From positions 28,148,001-28,212,000 of the forward strand of contig NC_043020.1 of NCBI RefSeq assembly GCF_006345805.1: a DNA stretch of 64,000 bases, written 5' to 3'. The DNA is from Octopus sinensis (lineage: Eukaryota). A program made the position numbers and the translations under genes. The first letter of the stretch is position 1; every line of letters begins with the position of its first letter. The notes beneath the pieces were generated by a model. That model was not told the origin of the DNA. It was given only the letters and a program-made list of their open reading frames with translations, and ran no database searches. This document shows, in pieces, positions 713 through 63,099 of the stretch.

Positions 713-46830
<46,118 letters not shown>

Positions 46831-50542: not shown

Positions 50543-51981
50543 TTATTCTGATTTGCTTTGCTCTGAATAGGACAAGGGCTGAATGCGAAGAACTTCGGCA
50601 GAATTGTTGAAGAACCAACAAGTAACATGGACTTTGTCCACAGAGAAATAATACAGGCTATCCTTACAAAGGTTTCTCCGATAGACAGAACGGGGATCTT
50701 CGGACAGAATCGAACAGATTGCCTGACAGACTTCGTGTGAGTCTTGCAGGAATTCTAACCGATAATCCTGCCGCTTATTGTGTTGGCTGAACTTTTGCAA
50801 CTGCAGACGGGAACGTTCAGTGAAGAAGACAGTCAATTTGGGAACCGGAGCTTTAACGACCCAGTCTGCAGAAACAAGGGGTTTTGTTGATGTGGGGTTG
50901 AAGGATGGTGTTGTAGCAACTGTGGGTGAGGTTGCAGCGTATTGGATTACAGGAGGGAAAATAACAGAAGATGTAGTAGTAAGAGGTGTGGATTCAGAGG
51001 GAGTTGTAGTAAGAAGAGCGGAATCAGGGGGAGTAGAATCAGTATGAGTTGTTGTGAGAAGAGTGGGAGCAACAGGTGTGAAAGCCATAGATTCTTTTGT
51101 GGTAGGAGATTCAGAGGGAGTTGTAGTAAGAGGAATGAAATCAACCTGGGTTTTGGTAAGAGGAGTGGAATTAACGTGGGTTGTGGTAAGAGGAGTGGAA
51201 TCAACTTGGGTTGTGGTAAGAGGAGTGGAATGAACTTGGGCTGTGGTAGGAGGAGTGGAAACAACAGGAGTTAAGGCAACAGATTCTTTTGTAGTAAAAA
51301 ATGGTGTCACAGCAGCATCTGAGTTCAAATCAAAGTTCGTTACAGCAATTGAGGCTGATTGGGAAGAAGATTTCAAAAGACAAACATTATGATTCTTTGT
51401 AGACGCTTTACTTGTTGTTTCTTCAGCGTCTTCTGATCCTTGTGAACTTGCATGAGTGAAAATCTTTCCTGCCTGAGTCTTCTGAAATTTTTCTTGGCCT
51501 AAAGACTCATCTTCCAGGCAATAATTCTTGGATGTGAAACAAAAGTTTTGTGCTTTTTTTCTTAAATCAAGATCTTCCTCAGTAATTCCAGAAGTGCTGT
51601 TTTCAATGGAATCCACCTCAAGCATTGTTGAATCCTCTGCAAAAACATCTGAAGAATTAGTTGAAGAGGAGCAAATAATTTTTTCTGTATTACTGGAGAG
51701 TTTTCTTTGTTCTGTTGAGCTGACTGAAGAACTGAAGTCTTGTGTTGGTTCTTGGTTCAGTGAAGTGTTGTGTTGGTTAAAGTTAGAACTTGGACAAGGA
51801 AGAACATTTGGGAACTGGTTGCTTGCGGAATGATAATGTGATGAAGGATTGTTTTTCTCCACAGATTCAAATTCAGCATGAGAAGCGCCTAGGGGACAGT
51901 CATATTGTGGTATGTAAGGTTTCACATCCAATACTGGAGTTCCATCTAAAAGATCAATCCCAGAAAAATGGATACTGGCAC
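50543..51981 (-). CDS. TRMO: TRMO terminal exon (end of TsaA barrel, long S/T/P linker, C-terminal domain, TAA)
   Basis: TACAG|GTGCC acceptor; lies within 499-aa ORF; minus-strand AATAAA near 50505-50510. Confidence 0.93.
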
Positions 51982-54974
51982 CTGTAATTAAAAAAAAAAT
52001 GTGAAAGCATTTGAATAAGATGGATGTCAAGAACCATATCACATCATATACCCAGGCCTATTCCCCAATTTTGTTTTAGGAACCAGGTAGTCACAACAAG
52101 ACACACACTAGGCCTTCCATTCATTTCCCAGCTCAAAGAAGCGAGCCCCGTTCTATGCTTGGATCAAGGTGTAGAATGCAACCCCCAATATCAACTGCAG
52201 GGCCCAACAGCATGTGCTGGTTTACCCCTGCCGCATCATGCTGGTTCCGTATCCCTTTGAGCAACATCAAATTCACTCATCCGTCCGCAAAAACCCTCTC
52301 CAAGCTTTCCAATCATTTATAAACTCTCTTGCCTCTCTCTCACTCCAACACCTCTAAAACAAGGGTCATGGAATTCCAAGAAAGACAACAAAATCAAAAA
52401 CACACAACGGATCAACTTTAACACCATTAACAGTAACAGGAATAAAACTACCTACAAAACAGTCCATGCTTCTAAACCATATTGCTCTGGGTTCAATCCC
52501 ACAGTGTGACACTTTGGGCAAGTGTCTTTTACAACCCCAGGCTGACCAAGGCGTTGTAAGTGGATTTGATAGACAGAAATAGAAAGAAGTCTGTTGCACG
52601 AGCGTGTGTTGTGTGCGTGCATGTATGTGTGTGTGTGTCTTCTTGTCTTGACATTGTGTGATAGTCGTAAATGAGTGTCACTGTCATACAAGCAGTCATT
52701 CATTTCCAATACTCCACAAGGACATACCTCAAATAAGCTCCAACCGACTCATACAAGCATAGAAAAATGAATGTTACGGCTGCAAAAGTGTTAAAAAAAC
52801 AAAACAAAACAATAAAACAGAAACATTTTACCAGTAATCTTCTCTATTTTCGCAAGTGTAAGTCCAATCGGGTTCGGCCTGTATGGTGCTCTTGTGGCAA
52901 AAAGACCAATACGTCGACCGTCAAGCCTTGGGGGTCGTACTTTAGCTTTGAAATAAGCATTGTTGTTTTTGTGAAACACAAAGATAATCCTGTAAGATAA
53001 AATTAATGAAATACAGTTAATCCCTTCCTACGAAGGAGGACTGACTGAAAATACGAAGTTAATAACAGAACTAAATGAATAAGTGAGTGCTCTATAACCT
53101 ATTAGGATATAGGGGTTACGACATGAGGATTTTGTAAAAGATCATGTTTGGTTTTTTAACTGGTTTTCTTTACCTAAAATGTTTAAGTTACCAGAACTAG
53201 AAATGAGAGAGAGAGAGAGAACTATAGTGTTAAAATGCCTTGCACACAAGTGAGATGGTGAAGTGGGCAGCAATGGAATCACAAAATCAATACAATACGT
53301 ATTTAGGTAAACCTTTATCTTATAACCATGTGGTCAGAAGCCAAGCATGTTAACCCCACACCTACGGACAGGCAGGCAGAGAGAGAGAGGGAAATGCACA
53401 TACACAACAAGCTTCTTTCAGTCCCCATCTACCAGAGCCACTCACAAGGCTTTAGATAAGGGTAAAAATTCTTCCCAAGTCACATAGACTCATAGGGCTG
53501 GTTTCTCAATTCCAGCAGCACATATATTCTCTGCCCTCCTGGATGGGGCACTGGTCTTTCACAGGATTGCACATTTTAGCAAGCTGAGTGGGCCGGAGCT
53601 ATGTGAAATGAACTGCTCTGCTCAAGAACACAATGTGTTGCCCGGTCCAAGAATCGAAACCATACTCTTATAATCATGATCCTAACACTCTAACCACTAA
53701 GCCATAAGCTTCCACACTCACAAGGCTTTAATCAGCCTTGGGCTTTTAGCAGAAGATACATGCCAAAGGTGCCACTCAGTGGTGTTGAACCCAAAATCAC
53801 AGAGTTGGGAAGCGAACTCCTTCAGCACTTGATACATCATCATCATTATATAACATTCGTCTTCTATGCATGCATGGATAGGACAGTTGATAGGAGCCGG
53901 CCAGGTAGAAAAACTACCCTAGGCTACTGTGTGTTTTGGCAGGGATTTTATGGCTGGATGCCCTTCCTAACACCAACCACTCCGCAGAGTGGACTCAGTA
54001 CTTTTTACGTGGCACTAGCACAGGCAGGGTTAGTTTTGGCACGATTTTTACATCTGGATGACCTTCCAAATGCCAACCACGTTACAGTGTGCAGTAATTT
54101 ATTTCTTGAATTTTTGGCAAATTTCTGAAAATTTTGGAAAATGTAAATGTAAAGATTTTATATTCACAACAGTGAGAGAGAGTGAAATGATTGTTGGTGA
54201 GTTCAGAGGATGTTGTGTGAAACACATGGATAAGGAATTGCTTTCAGTCACCAATACAGAATTATCTCCCTTGCTATAGCATTTGGTGCTCAAAAGGTGA
54301 AGGGTGTCTTTTTTTGAGGAGGTGAAATTACAGTACTGCTTACAACATGATTGATAAAATGCTTTATTTACACTCATGGCCAAAACTTGCAATAGACTAG
54401 CATCCTACCCAGGAGGAGGGGTATTTCTTGAAAACTGCAACACATTCAAGCAATAGTAGAGGAAGAAAAAAATGACATATACAAAAATAACTTAGATTTG
54501 TCATGGGCCCAAGAAGGCTTGGGCTTATCTCCATTTCCATGGGAATGAGATTACAGCCCTTTCTCCTGAATGGGGTACCAGTCTGTTGCAGTGGTAACTC
54601 CCCGGTTATTGCTGCAACTCATTTACAGCTCAATGAAGTGTAACAGTGTGAAATGAAGTGTTTTTGCTCAAAAACACAACATACCATCCTGTCCAGGAAT
54701 TGAAACCATTATTTTACGATCATGAGTGTAACACCCTTACCACTAGGCTACAAAGCTTCATAGAAAAATAAGATATACAAAAGAACATTTACCAAGCATG
54801 AGAGAAGTCTTGTAAACCTTCAAGAGAATGTTCTGGATTGTTAAAGATGGATTTGTCAATGGTTAACGTTCCACGAGCCTGTTGACATATTCCAGCTTGC
54901 CGAGGAGTTCCATTCTTAAACTTGAACAATGTCTGCATGTATCCAATAGTCTGCATTGTGCCAGGAACAGATTT
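50543..54974 (-). CDS. TRMO: tRNA (adenine(37)-N6)-methyltransferase, TsaA/TrmO family; 3 coding exons found, 5' end uncertain
   Basis: Spliced product contains KNGTPRQ, IFNNPEHSLEGLQDFSHAWIIFVFHKN, AKVRPPRLDG, GLFATRAPYRPNPIGLT, GIDLLDGTPVLDVKPYIPQYD and C-terminal LSEDPRSVYRR: hallmark TsaA/TRMO motifs. Confidence 0.93.
50975..51300 (-). repeat. Coding 30-bp tandem repeat (about STPLTTTQVD units) within TRMO linker
   Basis: Repeated GTTGTGGTAAGAGGAGTGGAATCAACTTGG-like units on the + strand. Confidence 0.85.
52832..52989 (-). CDS. TRMO: TRMO exon (IIFVFHKN...RPNPIGLTLAKIEKIT)
   Basis: TACAG / GTAAA, phase 2 to 1. Confidence 0.93.
54793..54974 (-). CDS. TRMO: TRMO exon (KSVPGTMQTIGYMQTLFKFKNGTPRQ...FSHA); possible start ATG at 54956
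   Basis: CTCAG acceptor, TG|GTAAA donor; not in ORF track. Confidence 0.9.
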
Positions 54975-55835
54975 CTGAGGAAGACAAATAAAAATAAATT
55001 ACGAAATTTTCTTTTTCTTTTGTTCCTACTGTAGGCAGAAGACCAGAAATTTTGGAGGATTGGGAATAGTTAATCATGAAGATGGGCACAGGGTCAGCTT
55101 CAGGTAAATGAATAAGGGTTTTAACTATGGGATAATAATTCTAAGACTAAAACCAGTGTGACAAGGTTGGACCAATGAATTACTGGTACAATCCAGTTGA
55201 TGAGCTTCTACATAGTTTGTCAACCTACATTCACTAACAAGGCTTGGGTCACTTGTCCAAGGTAGCCCATTGGGATGGAACCCGGGGTCTTATGGTTGTG
55301 AAGTGAATTTCTTAAGTGTTCAGTCATGCCTACGTCCACAGAGTATAAGGACATAATTAATATATCTTTATTTCTTTACTACCCACAAGGGGCTAAACAC
55401 AGAGAGGACAAACAAGGACAGACAAACGGATGAAGTCAATTATATCGACCCCAGTGCGAAACTGGTACTTTATTTATCGACCCCGAGAGGATGAAAGGCA
55501 AAGTCGACCTCGGCGGAATTTGAACTCAGAACGTAACGACAGACGAAATACGGTTACGCATTTCGTCCGGCGCGCTATCAGGCACCCTACATTATCATCA
55601 TTTTAATGTTCACATTGCCATGCTTGCCTGGGAAGGACGAAATTCCTTGAGGCAGATTTTCTATGGCTGTCTGCCCTTCCTGTCACCAAACCTCACCTGT
55701 TTCCAAACAAGGAAGTATTTCCCCATATCCAGAGTTGTCTTTGCAAAATATTGGAATTGAATGACACTCGCTTACAACTACCATGTGCTGTTAAAGCATG
55801 GACACACACACACACGTGGCGGTATTCAACATTTG

Positions 55836-56273
55836 GCACGGCATATAACCCCTCAAAACGATTTTTTTATTTTCTGGAATTTTCAGAAATTTCTCCCGAA
55901 TTTGTGTTCTACACACGGGAATTCATAAGAACTATGTAACCCCACCCCACAACATTTTTGTGATTGAAGGGGTATTTAGCTGTTATTTTTAGCACATCTC
56001 ACGACCACCTCATACCGTCCTCGTTTGTTTGTCAGTCTGAAGTATTGATATCTTTCTCCAGATAAACACATTTAACGGTCTATTGCCACAATTTAAGCCC
56101 CCCAAAATCAAACTGTCCGTAATTGTGATTAAACATTTTTTCTAATTTCGAAAATTAAAAAAACAGAAGTTTTTTCCCTAGTCATATGAATTCTCGTGAG
56201 TAGAACACAAATTCACAAAGTTTCTGAAAATTTCCCCAAAATAATAAAGTTATGAGTGGGTTATGTGGGGTGC
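55836..56273. mobile_element. Old MITE with ~95-bp degenerate TIRs
   Basis: GAATTTGTGTTCTAC...GAATTCATA versus TATGAATTC...GTAGAACACAAATTC. Confidence 0.65.
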
Positions 56274-56517
56274 TTAAAGCAGAATTCTGTCCCGAAAAAC
56301 ACAACGAAAACAATTATTAATCACATTTAAGCACTAATCTTATATTTAAGCACTAATCTAAGATAAGGATCTGATTGCTACGGAATTTTTAATAAAAACT
56401 AACTGCAGATAATTCTCGTAATTATATTTTTTCTGTATGAACGAAATACATTACCTCTATCATCATCAATTAAATGTAAATTGTAGGATTGTATGTATGT
56501 ATATATATAGTTTGGAT

Positions 56518-56908
56518 GAGTGTCCTCACTTTTACGATCCTGCATTTAACTAGAGAAAGCAGGGGTCCTGCAAGGTTTTACAGCAACTAAAATGCCATTT
56601 CCGAATGTGTAGTAAATTATTATAAAAGCAAGCCAAATAAGAATCAATTAACTAGATATTGGTTAGGTTGGCTTTCCAAACCACAACTGTTTATGAATTC
56701 AAATGATGTTTTGTGCACCGATCAACACAATGAATATCTTATTTCGGAACATATATACCTCATCAAGATCTTTCCATCATCTCGTTTGAGCCAACGATAG
56801 TAATTTTTACGCGTGGAAGTCCTGCTATAAAGAACAACTCAGGACCATGGTGGTACAGTAAAAAAAACGGTTGATTTTGAATTTAGGACCGTAAAAGTGA
56901 GGATACCC
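56518..56908. mobile_element. MITE with ~24-bp TIRs
   Basis: GTCCTCACTTTTACGATCCT / AGGACCGTAAAAGTGAGGAT. Confidence 0.7.
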
Positions 56909-57384
56909 TATTATTTGGACATATATATATATATATTAGGTGATGTTTATAATAGATAGAGCAAGGTACGTCAGGTGCGAGGGCCGCTTAAGTAAATGAG
57001 AATGTAAGAGGAGATCACAAGAGATGGAAGATAGAAAGAAGATTATAGAATGAGAATGGAAAGATTGTGGAAATGAAGAGAATAATGTTGAAGGGAGAGA
57101 GAAATAAAAAGAAAAGCAGAGATACAGAAAAAGAAAGGGAAACTGCAAGAAAGGATAAAAGAATAACAGAAAAAAAAGAGAAAATGAAACCGTGAAAGGA
57201 AAGAAATAAAATGAAAAGAAGGATTTCGTTTTTGGATTTGGTTTGCAAGATTCTTTATATGAGTTCGTGTGTTGAAGCATATTCTGTTGTGTCTGGGGAG
57301 TGTCATTTTCTTTTTGTGCCTTATTATGTAACACACCCACCGGTAAAATTTCCACTTTTTTCTTATTTTTATGTATTTATTTGG

Positions 57385-57783
57385 CGTGGCTGTGTGGTAA
57401 GTAGCTTGTTTACCAACCACATGGTTCCGGGTTCAGTTCCACTAATGGCACCTCGGGCAAGTGTCTTCTACTATAGCCTCGGGCCGACCAAAGCCTTGTG
57501 AGTGGATTTGGTAGATGGAAACTGAAAGAAGCCCGTCGTATATATGTATATATATATATATATGTGTATGTGTGTGTGTTTGTGTGTCTATGTTTGTCCC
57601 CTTAGCATTGCTTGACAACCGATGCTGGTGTGTTTATGTCCCCGTCACTTAGTGGTTCGGCAAAAAACAGGTCGATAGAATAAGTACTGGGCTTACAAAG
57701 AATAAGTGCCGGGGTCGAGTTGCTCGATTAAAGGCGGTGCTCCAGCATGGCCGCAGTCAAATGACTGAAACAAGTAAAAGAGT
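57385..57783 (+). mobile_element. tRNA-derived SINE family A, flanked by ~80-bp inverted repeats
   Basis: Match to family A; flanks 57282-57362 and 57787-57866 are reverse complements. Confidence 0.85.
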
Positions 57784-58103
57784 AAGGAAAAAGTGGAAAT
57801 TTCACCGGTGGGTGTGTTACATTATAAGGCACAAAAAGAAAATGACTCTCCCCAGACACAACAGAAAAGAAGGATTGTTTCTTTTAAAAAAACAAGAAAG
57901 ATAATGAGCGGAGGCATAGCTGAAGAAGCTCACTTTGCAACCATGTGGTTTCGGTTTCGGTTCCAGCACATGACACCCTGGATCAGAGAGTTCTACTCCG
58001 ATCACTCTACCCAGCCCTGTGAGTAGATTTGCTTTGCAAGTGTATGGTTCTGTGTCTGTGTTTGTCCCTCTCCACCGCTTGACAACCGGTGTAACGTTGG
58101 GAT

Positions 58104-58426
58104 CTTTTCCTTTTGATAGCCAGATTTCAACACAATTTCTAGTTAACTAAACACTTTAAAACTTCGTATACTGGTAGAATGTGTCAAAAGAAAACATTAT
58201 TTTCACTTGGCTTTTTTGATAAATTTGTAATTCGTTTGTTTAACGTAGTTTAATTTTTTGAAATGTTAACCAATCTTATTACAAATTACTTATTACAAAT
58301 TTACAAATTTATCAAAAAAGCCAAGTGAAAATAATGTTTTCCTTTGACACATTCTACCACTATACGAAGTTTTCAAGTGTTTAGTTAACTAGAAATTGTG
58401 TTGAAATCTGGCTATCAAAGGGAAAG
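58104..58426. mobile_element. Foldback/MITE with ~125-bp TIRs inserted into a SINE
   Basis: Arms ~58104-58231 and ~58298-58426 are near-perfect reverse complements. Confidence 0.85.
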
Positions 58427-58802
58427 TTTACACTCCCGTAGCCTAGGGGTTCGTCAAAAGAAAACGATGGAATAAGTACCAAACTGCAACACAAATAAGT
58501 CGATTTGTATGACCGAAACCCTTTACGGTGATGCCCCAGGATGACCGCAGCCCAATGTCTGAAACTAGTAAAAGATAAAGATACATCTATAGACGTAATA
58601 AAAATGGAGGTGGGGAATAAAATGGATTGACTGATTAAAGGAAAGAAATAATGACGAATGTAAAAATCTGAAATGGCTTTTCTGAATTACTGAAACGAAT
58701 AGATGAATGCTCCAAAATGGGTAAATCATGCGAACCGATCATTTTTCTATTTTTTCCCAAATGATCTTCAGATTTCTGTATTTTGAAAACCGACTGTACA
58801 AT

Positions 58803-59160
58803 ACTCTTTTAATTGTTTCAGTCATTTTGACTATGGCCATGCTGGAGCACCGCCCTTAGTCGACCAAATCGCCCCCAGGACTTATTCTTTGTAAGCCTAG
58901 TACTTATTCTATCAGTCTCTTTTGCTGAACCGCTAAGTTACGGGGACGTAAACATACCAGCATCGGTTGTCAAGTGATGCTGGTGGGACAAACACAGACA
59001 CACAAACGTATATACACTCACATACATATCTATACATATATACGATGGGCTTCTTTCAGTTTCCGTCTACCAAATCCACTCACAAGGCTTTGGTCGGCCT
59101 GAGGCTATAGTAGAAGACACTTGCCCAAGGTGCCACGCAGTGGGACTGAACCAGGAACCA
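58803..59160 (-). mobile_element. tRNA-derived SINE family A
   Basis: Match to family A. Confidence 0.83.
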
Positions 59161-59277
59161 TCTGTCATTCCTTTCTATCTCTATCTTTCTCATACACCTA
59201 ATCACAAAATCCGTTTATGTCCATCATACTTTCTTGTTCTATATACACATTTACAATATGAATGCATCATTTAAATA

Positions 59278-59749
59278 GAGCGGCTAACCGGCTTCCGTGC
59301 CAGTGATACGTAAAAGGCACCATTCGAGTGTGATCGTTACCAGCATCGCCTTACTGGCACCTGTGCCCCTGCTAGTAGGGTGCCAAGAGCACCACCTGAG
59401 CGTGATCGTTGCCAGAGCGGCTAACTGGCTTCCGTGTCGGTGGCACGTAAAAGGCACCATTCGAGCGTGATCGTTACCAGCGTCGCCTAACTGGCACCTG
59501 TGCCGTTGGCATGTGTAAAAAGATTCGAGCGAGGTCGTTGCCAGTACCGCCTCACTAGCCCCGTGCCGGTGGCATGTAAAAAGGACCCACTACACTCTCG
59601 GAGTGGTTGGCGTTAGGAAGGGCATCCAGCTGTAGAAACTCTTCCAGATCAGATTGGAGTCTGGTACAGCCATCTGGTTGGCCAGACCTCAGTCAAATCG
59701 TCCAACCCATGCTAGCATGGAAAGCGGACGTTAAACGATGATGATGATG
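59278..59749 (+). mobile_element. Retroposon family B, long copy with several internal tandem units
   Basis: Ends GGAAAGCGGACGTTAAACGATGATGATG. Confidence 0.83.
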
Positions 59750-60479
59750 GAATACCCAGTGCATGGACGTGATAACCTACCACTTGGGTGATCCCAGAAA
59801 CGGCTGTAAGACTTCAAATTGACCTTACCATAATTAAAATATTCTAAATGACTTGAGATACTCGTTCTGCCTTGGTTTTTATTTTCCTTCTAATATGATA
59901 TATATACGGCAGGCTTTTTTTGGTTTCTGTCTATCAAACCCTCCCACAAGGCTTTGGTCGGTGCCACGCAGTGGGACCGAAACCAGAACCATGTGGTTGG
60001 GAAGCAAGCTTATCACACAGCCACGCCTGCGCCTATGGATATTTTTTAAAAAACATTTTCGGCAAATATGTTTCAGATTATGATTATGTTGCCATTTGAT
60101 GGGAAAAAAAGGGGGGGTTTATTCACATGCCTCGACTTTGTTTCCTCATATGTTTTGACGAGGTGACAGAACCATCTGCTCCATCCCTCCAAATTATTTT
60201 ATTACATCAAATTCTTATATAATTGTAATCTACACCATCAGAAAGGTGTATTTTGAAAAAAATTGAACAGTATTGGTTTTTTCAGAAAGATATGAGGAAA
60301 TAAAGTCGGGGAAAGCGGTTTTGCATGAAGCAAAAAAAATGAAAGGAAGAAAAATATTCGTTGAAATGGTTCTTGATTTTATTGTTACAATGTAAGACAC
60401 TTCTAGTTGTTGTACACAGATTATTTGTAGATCCTTGCCAAAACTGACCTCACCTGTGCTTGTGCCATGTCTTCTTCTT

Positions 60480-60592: not shown

Positions 60593-60708
60593 TGTGTTTT
60601 TGTGTGTTATTTACTTTGCTGGGTAGTCGTTGTAGGATCGACTAGTCACGACTAGCTAGCGCGGATGCGCGACTACGCGCACCGGGACCACTCTTCTCAA
60701 GTAGTACC
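60593..60708. mobile_element. Solo terminal fragment of the same Merlin-type MITE family
   Basis: About 105 bp reverse-complement match to 60987-61090, ending ...CTCAAGTAGTACC. Confidence 0.75.
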
Positions 60709-60986: not shown

Positions 60987-61376
60987 GGTACTACTTGAGA
61001 ACAGTGGTCCCGTTGCGCGCACTCGCACATCCGCACTAGCTAGTCGTGACTAGTCGATCCTACGACGACTACCCAGCAAACTAAATAAACCACAAAATAA
61101 ATAATTTTTTTACACAAAGTATATATATATATATATATATGGGGGGTTAGGGTTAGGGTTAGGGATGGGAGAAAAGGGTTTCTGTTATCATCAGAAATGT
61201 AAACCACTTCCGGTACGTACAGTACTTATACCGAAGGATCGCCATTTTTTGTTAAACAAAGTAAATAACACGCAAAAACACAAAGTAAGGATCGACTAGT
61301 CATGACTAGCCAGCGCGGATGCGGGGGGGGGGGTACGCGAGTGCGCGCACCGGGACCACTGTTCTCAAGTAGTACC
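60987..61376. mobile_element. Merlin-type MITE nested in a SINE
   Basis: TIRs GGTACTACTTGAGAACAGTGGTCCCG / CGGGACCACTGTTCTCAAGTAGTACC; flanks aaaacaaaa / caaacaaaa (8-9 bp TSD-like); SINE sequence resumes on both sides. Confidence 0.75.
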
Positions 61377-61497: not shown

Positions 61498-61565
61498 CAT
61501 GGTCTTATTTTTGTGAGTTCTGTCTTCGTGTTCGCATCACCGAACGGTAAACTGGAATGGAATGG

Positions 61566-62141
61566 CTATTGCATCGGGTAGTAATCCCTGATGCATCTGA
61601 TGAAAGACACGAACAGGCTTTGTCGGTGGAACTGACGCCATGTGTATTCTTCGTTTATCTCCAAGACAGCTCCGTTTTCGTCCGTCCGATGGTCGTAACA
61701 CCACATGGAACAAATACCTTTGAAATACTTGAACCAGTTGACAATGGCTTCGGTGCCGATACCAACTTGTCTCCTGATCACAGACTGTTTACAGTCGATT
61801 TCTACCCACCAAAACATAAGTTCAACGAGACGAGGCAACGGCACGCAAGAACCGGAAAAGAAAGAATCGCGCCGGATACTTCGATATCTCTTGCACACGC
61901 AACAACTCCAAGCTTTTCCGTCCGAGAAATTCTGCCGGATAACGAAATGCATCGGCTGGTTACAGCACACCGCTGAATTGTGAATTAATCCGAATGAAGC
62001 AACAAACTCAATCGTAGATTCAATATCACGAGTTATGCAGTGAATATCCCGTAGAAGATAATCCCTTTCACTGAGTTGTTGATCATCCATTACGACCTCC
62101 ACAATTCTGACGGGGGCCTTGGGTCGGCCGCGTACAGCCAT
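61566..62141 (-). CDS. Merlin/ISXO2(IS1595)-like transposase derivative, 191 aa, catalytic core apparently deleted
   Basis: Zn-ribbon-like CCNQPM...WSCCVCKRYRSIRRDSFF, HTH-like segment ending IVNWFKYFKGIC, LEINE (degenerate VEIDE), joined directly to C-terminal EYTWRQ...F...I...YP. Confidence 0.7.
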   Translation of the reverse strand: MAVRGRPKAPVRIVEVVMDDQQLSERDYLLRDIHCITRDIESTIEFVASFGLIHNSAVCCNQPMHFVIRQNFSDGKAWSCCVCKRYRSIRRDSFFSGSCVPLPRLVELMFWWVEIDCKQSVIRRQVGIGTEAIVNWFKYFKGICSMWCYDHRTDENGAVLEINEEYTWRQFHRQSLFVSFIRCIRDYYPMQ

Positions 62142-62994
62142 CTTTCTTTCGGATCTTGTACATGAATTAAATGTTTCGTTTCATTGGCGATTATTGCCGG
62201 TTATTAACGATTATAAAAATTTTCTTTTACTTTTGTTAATTTTGATTTTGTTCCCCATTTTTTTGGTCCATCGATTATAAATAAAATGAGAAAGATCATC
62301 AAGATTAATAACAAATAAAAAAAAACATTCAAATATTTTCCCCATTACCGCCTAATTCTGTCGTCTGATATCTGCTGCCATGGTTACAGTTTACTATGGC
62401 GGTGAAAAATGGAGATTTCGATTGTATTTTATTAATTGAAAATGCTGGTTCCAAATACTGACGAGGACAAAACGTTTTGATAGAAATTTTGAAAGAATCG
62501 AAATTCAAAATAAACTCGATGAAATATTTTTAAAAGTACATTTAATATAAATTTAACAACCGCACAAAAAACTTCTGTTCGTAAACAAATTTAGAAGATT
62601 ACTTTATAACAGGCAAGTTGTTTTCTTTCGATACATAATAAAATTTCAGTTACATGACACTCAAAAAGTAAAAATGAAATAAATTATATGAAACATTATT
62701 GAATTAAAAACATCCTGTACATATATCGTACGTTCTGTTAACTAATTCATAAGCGCAGGTATGGCTGTGTGGAGTGGATGATGATCCTTAGTTGGACAAT
62801 GAGGGAATGGTAAATAAGATGGGAAGCTGGAGGAGAATGGCAGGGAAAAAAGGAAGGAGGAAAGGATTAGTGGTAGAGCCTAAAAAGCAAAAAGAAGGGA
62901 TAGATGAGGTGGAGGTGTAAGGGCAAGGGTTATTGCTATTTAGGAAACATGTAAATAACAAATTGATATAATCTGTGAACATACTCTCTTGTTT

Positions 62995-63099
62995 TATATA
63001 TATATATATGTGTGTGTATATATGTATGTTTGTATGTATGTGTACATATATATATATATGTATATATGTATGTTTGTATGTATGTGTACATATATATAC

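Follow-up and report, generated by a model that had tools for sequence, protein, structure and literature searches.

A single-copy Merlin transposase-derived gene lacking the catalytic core is a candidate domesticated gene in Octopus sinensis

Transposases are well known as a source of domesticated DNA-binding modules. For Merlin elements, PMC8101967 gives a definition of the ends and suggests that some protist ORFs are domesticated. Its putative cases (from Stentor, Symbiodinium, Perkinsus, and kinetoplastids) are described as preserved ORFs, several of them with a DDE domain; in the sections that treat these ORFs no core-excised form is given, and Merlins are described there as lacking the IS1595 zinc-ribbon domain. 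Merlin is absent from the metazoan survey of PMC10027918, where the main text uses none of the words Merlin, ISXO2, and IS1595. Two recently active Merlin families have been reported in O. vulgaris (PMC13282606). The P-element KP repressor, a 207-aa protein, is the product of small non-autonomous members of the very family that it represses (PMC7776569). A search of mainly open-access main texts listed none that reports a domesticated Merlin from a cephalopod; Merlin sequences are also catalogued in the supplements of PMC8101967 and PMC13282606, which may be relevant here.

We analyzed a 64,000-nucleotide stretch of the Octopus sinensis genome (the window) that contains a Merlin-like ORF (Table 1). 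The original prediction, made from the sequence alone, described a stop-free 191-codon frame from which the DDE core seemed to have been excised, and proposed either a domesticated gene or a KP-like repressor. The frame is real and codes for 191 amino acids followed by a TAG stop, but it lies on the minus strand (read from 62141 to 61566); the plus strand across the interval contains stops. The start context is GAAAGAAAGATGG. The motif LEINE (residues 160-164) abuts EYTWRQ...YYP without a gap, and alignment with four full-length paralogues showed that 118-120 residues, the whole DDE core, are absent at this joint and that the first catalytic Asp position holds Asn, as the prediction had read. 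A Pfam search of the ORF protein returned zero matches, PF12762 (DDE_Tnp_IS1595) included, whereas this domain was found in all three full-length paralogues tested. The ORF is 51-55% identical to full-length octopus Merlin transposases over its N-terminal 164 residues and tail, and it matches the paralogues bearing PF12762 at E 3e-61. It therefore has the homology outside the core, in the paralogue match and the tail profile, that marks a Merlin derivative, and it lacks the D-D-E triad of an autonomous Merlin. Four cysteines (C59, C60, C80, and C83), each at least 90% conserved in an alignment of 133 sequences, would be suited to zinc binding; PF12760 is matched in just 2 of the 133 aligned family members.

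Table 1. Positions of the features described in the text (window coordinates unless an identifier is given).
Feature	Position or identifier	Strand	Basis
191-codon single-exon ORF, Merlin (IS1595/ISXO2-like) transposase-derived	61566..62141	-	ORF list, genome search, alignment
In-frame deletion joint, codons 164/165; first catalytic Asp position is Asn163	61649..61650	-	alignment and contigs bridging the joint (6 runs)
Four-cysteine zinc-ribbon-like region (C59, C60, C80, C83)	61893..61967	-	alignment conservation, three short modelled strands
HTH-like region of three helices (residues 96-150); predicted to be the DNA-binding module and to contribute to the dimer face	61692..61856	-	model, fold matches, interface residues
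Retained C-terminal Merlin tail, residues 165-191	61569..61649	-	tail profile E 2.6e-6, helix 176-187 modelled
Upstream sequence in the same contigs as the ORF, 8 upstream ATGs	62142..62485	-	contigs X3, X6, X12
Possible splice donor GA/GTTTGT following codon 45, phase-compatible with TRMO exon 3	62002..62008	-	O. bimaculoides gene model, window sequence
TRMO, neighbouring host gene, synteny anchor	50546..58101	-	protein matches, contigs
TRMO exons	57934-58101, about 56455-56830, 54792-54974, 52830-52989, 50546-51990	-	protein matches, contigs
390-bp Merlin-type MITE, GG...CC ends, 8-9 bp target duplication, downstream of the ORF and outside the gene	60987..61376	.	TIR matches, SINE comparison
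Second MITE copy, lone right-hand end, same family as the 390-bp MITE	60598..60708	.	TIR matches
Other core-less Merlin proteins with N-domain and tail	P0005, P0138, P0174, P0208, P0230, P0231, P0234 (possibly P0189)		profile scan, tree

The origin of the joint was considered separately. Contigs from all six runs, which were selected by this stretch, bridge the joint, and an assembly artefact was rejected on this basis. Deletion through splicing and retro-copying was also rejected: by eye, the codons at the edges in four paralogues, from which the parent may differ, lack a frame-compatible GT...AG pair. The trinucleotide GAA occurs on both sides of the joint, and an origin by microhomology is possible.

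The ORF is present as a single copy and stands apart from other Merlins. A protein search of its own genome returned the ORF once, followed by full-length Merlins at 51-54% identity. At the DNA level, the ORF plus its flanks matched the genome once in full and 29 times in part, all repeat counts from these genome searches being lower bounds; the partial matches longer than 260 bases, which are its nearest DNA relatives, are 67-69% identical. The many near-identical, TIR-flanked copies of an ordinary young deletion derivative were not seen, and a young multicopy derivative was rejected. Synonymous sites between the ORF and four paralogues are saturated (dS about 2). A tree of 40 N-terminal domains placed the ORF as a lone branch within an unresolved group with other octopus Merlins.

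We compared the locus among octopus species using TRMO, which lies downstream of the ORF on the same strand and is 100% identical in the window to an O. sinensis protein. CAI9739943.1 from O. vulgaris is the same protein as the ORF (190/191 residues identical), and its accession number adjoins those of the O. vulgaris TRMO models. The O. bimaculoides TRMO model XP_014781937.1 opens with the first 45 residues of the ORF (43/45 identical, start kept) joined to TRMO exon 3, and these 45 codons are the part of the orthologue that was seen. The ORF is thus next to TRMO in the annotations of three species, in O. bimaculoides by its 5' part only. O. bimaculoides is reported to have split from the vulgaris-sinensis pair ~34 Myr ago, and O. 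vulgaris from O. sinensis ~2.5 Myr ago (10.1101/2023.05.16.540928, citing others), so the locus, seen via the first 45 codons, would be ~34 million years old. No orthologue from beyond these three species appeared among the 150 listed of 728 matches. The fusion in XP_014781937.1 skips the exon with the first part of the TrmO_N domain, and a fused TRMO of this form is likely inactive. None of the four O. sinensis and two O. vulgaris TRMO models is fused. Given these two observations, we treated the fusion as a synteny marker and at most a minor isoform.

Several further features were observed around TRMO. Its upstream exons at 57934-58101 and 56455-56830 are alternatives, one of which is spliced to 54974 in runs X6 and X20; this exon lies directly against an inverted-repeat element (58106-58425). 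A Ser/Thr-rich linker of ~285 residues lies between the conserved halves of the protein (50546-51990). At positions 52896 and 52935, in a TRMO exon, all four runs differ from the window, reflecting a rare allele or an assembly error. An exon of a Tudor-domain gene (PF00567, E 1e-15) is located downstream of TRMO at 15091-15534 on the minus strand.

Variation among the runs points to purifying selection on the frame. The eight listed variable sites in the ORF are all third positions. Seven of them, one being a TAG/TAA stop swap, leave the protein unchanged (P about 0.001 conditioned on change type). From these eight sites, all in RNA-type contigs, omega is about 0.05, far from the value near 1 of an ordinary deletion derivative. 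Dropping one possible A-to-I editing site left 6/7 synonymous (P 0.004). Six of the seven synonymous sites are located beyond codon 45. Runs X3, X11, and X15 show no differences in the ORF, X6 shows one, and X12 shows six; X20 has one new and two shared differences and one more that is unlisted. The X12 contig carries three indels near the ORF, all of them outside the frame. A 141-codon overlapping frame on the plus strand was rejected as the selected frame, five of the six variable sites there being non-synonymous.

Transcription was assessed in six runs from five studies, among 20 listed runs containing the stretch. The runs were selected by the stretch, and none of the listed runs is on record as RNA. 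The TRMO intron is spliced in all four runs checked over TRMO, which identifies those runs as RNA, and contigs of the same four runs also lie on the ORF (strand and level not given). Intronic contigs occur as well in X3 and X6, so these runs contain unprocessed RNA or DNA. The ORF is spanned by contigs from X3 (61510-62485), X6 (61508-62438), and X12 (61508-62358). Contig depths were 5-33 over the ORF, 26-150 over TRMO exons, and 2-6 in the intron, and they do not permit a ranking of expression. The interval 62488-63000 is without contig cover in four runs, and X6 and X20 show some depth beyond 62386. One contig survey recorded extra X3 and X6 depth at 62052-62385 beyond the ORF contig, and another survey did not. 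This depth could represent hidden joints to sequence in 52700-60400; the possible splice donor in the ORF is absent among the 15 listed of 36 contig joints.

We modelled the ORF protein with AlphaFold2 using an input alignment of 133 relatives. The model reached pLDDT 92 and pTM 0.88, a first fold from a five-sequence alignment having given pLDDT 44. Confidence is lower only around the joint (residues 151-170), and the tail helix is modelled with high confidence (pLDDT 96 at residues 181-190). The helices of the HTH-like region span residues 102-114, 119-126, and 130-150. This single high-pTM model implies that the tail would be placed against the N-domain. Because the prediction draws on full-length relatives, the model would report the Merlin family scaffold as much as the ORF protein. 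Foldseek returned zero matches at E 0.001, and VIA-align returned no match with Z of at least 5; its weak matches (best Z 3.7) were mostly to homeodomain, Myb, and HTH chains and covered residues 96-158. A PDB sequence search gave one row (E 0.25). None of these negative results shows that the fold is new. In a protein atlas, the top matches (0.90) were unnamed eukaryotic clusters and lower rows were IS1595 zinc-ribbon clusters, which we take as a lead only.

Homodimer prediction for the ORF protein scored 0.59, compared with 0.01 for the best of three controls. The prediction runs agreed in 100% of the smaller contact set, with partner pLDDT of at least 74, and placed the interface at residues 29-38, 107, and 114-127. 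In calibration, the homodimer mark was reached by 21/30 solved homodimers and 0/23 monomers from microbes, and by 17/29 homodimers and 0/30 monomers from eukaryotes. Full-length paralogues have 7-8 of the 17 predicted interface residues in common with the ORF. The prediction for the ORF protein is a compact zinc-ribbon/HTH fold that homodimerises.

On balance, we favor the model that the ORF is a domesticated gene for a non-catalytic DNA-binding protein kept by the host, and we consider it somewhat probable. The single copy, the synonymous variation, the syntenic 5' part in O. bimaculoides, and the runs with spliced RNA agree with this part of the original prediction. The protein is presumably translated and is predicted to act as a host regulator that binds DNA but does not cut it. 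Binding would occur at fixed genomic sites, most plausibly descendants of old Merlin ends, rather than serve to police current Merlin families. We envision an old Merlin copy from which both the ends and the catalytic insert disappeared. If the RNase H core had been plugged in as an insert, with the N-terminal domain on one side and the tail on the other, its clean removal would have left a stable module, and a foldable zinc-ribbon/HTH/tail dimer would have been retained after core loss. The ORF would then have come under a promoter upstream of TRMO, and purifying selection would now keep it as a non-cutting DNA-binding protein.

The original prediction had noted three TIRs within 1 kb of the ORF and no TIR enclosing it. 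Both observations hold. Matches are present at 60688, 60987, and 61356, where zero were expected (100 shuffles), two of them being the ends of the 390-bp MITE, and they belong to a non-coding MITE family whose 21-mer end has 356 exact genome matches. In a further SINE copy within the window, the sequences flanking the 390-bp MITE are joined directly, which indicates that the MITE is a later insertion into a SINE. A short telomere-like TTAGGG run occurs inside this MITE (61146-61165). A search that allowed five mismatches and reached 30 kb beyond the window end gave no further TIR match. The 6 kb on either side of the ORF likewise contain no GG..CC inverted repeat accompanied by an 8/9-bp duplication. 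The ORF is therefore not enclosed by the GG-ended TIRs and 8-9 bp duplication of an autonomous Merlin, and the MITE ends were rejected as its own. No transposase was linked to the MITE ends, which gave a hit at five mismatches in only one of 12 stretches searched and none in ten 10-kb stretches around the young family described below, L002/L004, and L044. Nothing beyond proximity connects the ORF protein to the neighbouring TIRs. By eye, three of 100 listed MITE-end matches lie at most 5 kb from Merlin transposase remnants (L022:2131-2151; G000:C4:20031667; G000:C2:107393715), none oriented to enclose the remnant, which suggests that Merlin insertions cluster.

The closest young Merlin family comprises three identical 305-aa ORFs (L042-L046 with L066-L070) in copies that are 99.0-99.7% alike over 7.5 kb. 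Its right end is sharp and has 135 exact genome matches, and its left TIR was not found within 17.5 kb in any of five copies; these elements may be very long or have unlike ends. A KP-like repressor would keep current Merlin transposases in check, either by sitting on their ends or by drawing them into dead mixed dimers. The existence of this young family, the helix motif EAIVNW that it has in common with the ORF, the MITE ends close by, and the retention of predicted DNA-binding and dimer parts after loss of catalysis, as in KP (PMC7776569), all speak for such a role. However, the ORF is only 51% identical to the young family and sits on a separate tree branch, 8 of the 17 predicted interface residues are common to the two, and the family's end differs in sequence from the neighbouring MITE end. 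The ORF also lies outside any TIR-bearing multicopy element, whereas KP is encoded within elements of the family that it represses. Strong conservation over ~34 Myr would fit fixed targets better than the chasing of changing elements. We regard a KP-like role as unlikely, and its proposed action on the neighbouring TIRs is not supported, these being ends of a MITE family whose local copy interrupts a SINE.

We also considered whether the ORF is simply an old remnant of an ordinary deletion, one that is open by chance and owes its transcription to a neighbouring promoter. Merlin remnants are abundant (at least 150 scored genome matches), and the core-less form is not confined to this locus. A profile scan for N-domain, core, and tail in 155 proteins recovered ten with N-domain and tail but no core match: the ORF, its O. 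vulgaris copy, and eight others. The core of P0153 (321 aa) has probably decayed, leaving seven other core-less proteins. The others include an O. bimaculoides model of the young family and a sea-spider model, and in the tree the five included in addition to P0005 are dispersed among the branches. They may be real deletions or gene models that skip broken cores. Further points count against domestication. The eight upstream ATGs could hinder translation, 6 of 27 family-consensus positions are altered (including R141K in the last HTH helix), and the variable sites are few and come from RNA-type contigs, so that RNA editing is possible site by site. The 43/45 residues identical in O. bimaculoides are not significantly more than the 247/285 of the TRMO low-complexity linker (Fisher P 0.06). 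In neutral simulations, 43/45 was reached in 6-23% of trials at an assumed 4-6% DNA divergence, and the frame stayed open by chance over the short O. vulgaris split in 45-76% at 1% divergence. Against a remnant, at most two differences in 45 residues arose in 1.5% of trials at an assumed 8% divergence, and simulated frame survival was 0.2-2% at 5-8% divergence with indels. The full-length Merlin pair L003/P0003, whose orthology is presumed, is 34/45 identical over the same stretch. Together with the excess of synonymous sites and the confinement of indels to sequence outside the frame, these results make a remnant improbable.

Other Merlin sequences in the genome drew our attention. L002:1486-2424, L003:1078-2022, and L004:1483-2421 contain full-length open Merlin ORFs in which the first catalytic Asp is replaced by Ala, Gly, and Ala, respectively. 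The dN/dS for L002 versus L004 is 0.056/0.202, and L003 shares 81% identity with P0003 of O. bimaculoides. These three are candidates for further domesticated Merlin genes. A tandem array was also found in which a 370-bp unit, the N-terminal part of a Merlin transposase, is repeated at least four times (L013, L015-L017; G000:C10:58688299-58689834), each repeat being an open frame of 156-159 codons.

Least probable of all is that the ORF is kept mainly as a TRMO 5' exon (a 45-residue leader to exon 3) or for a shared promoter, with the 191-aa product secondary: XP_014781937.1 has exactly such a fusion, the in-phase donor exists in the window, the ORF lies 7 kb upstream on the TRMO strand, and the extra depth at 62052-62385 is unexplained with 15 of 36 joints listed, but the fused form is likely inactive and missing from all six O. 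sinensis and O. vulgaris models, most synonymous sites lie beyond codon 45, and contigs read through the donor unspliced.

The domesticated-gene model raises a broader idea that we offer as speculation. Merlin may be a zinc-ribbon/HTH dimer scaffold with a removable catalytic insert, the excision of which would repeatedly yield DNA-binding dimers in unrelated animals; the octopus gene would then be the selected founder of an unrecognised class of Merlin-derived transcription factors and one of several tamed octopus Merlins. We hold this possibility tentatively and think it doubtful, if less so than a KP-like role. The ORF is in any case a candidate octopus-specific regulator born of cephalopod transposon load. 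No solved structure matches its family by sequence (best E 0.25), and a small, single-exon, catalytically empty Merlin with a confident model provides a tractable handle on DNA recognition and dimerisation by Merlin/IS1595 proteins.

Comparison with known systems places the ORF between several of them. It resembles Merlin/IS1595 (PF12762) transposases in its N-terminal 164 residues and tail but has no DDE domain, TIR, or target duplication and is single copy. Unlike the Merlins described in the text of PMC8101967, the octopus ORF clade has four conserved cysteines. KP is of similar size, also has an internal deletion, and keeps DNA-binding and dimer parts of the kind predicted in the ORF. The ORF, by contrast, is fixed, lacks TIRs, and stands at about 50% divergence from every active family. 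Drosophila CG4570 and cag (PMC13548663) are single-copy host genes under purifying selection that kept a DNA-binding module and lost catalysis, as we propose for the ORF, and the THAP, CENPB, ZBED, HTH-Psq, FLYWCH, and FHY3 groups (PMC10027918) also kept the module without catalysis. The ORF differs from these genes, as those papers present them, in two aspects: its source is a Merlin element, and its core was lost from the interior of the protein, the tail being joined back on instead of cut away.
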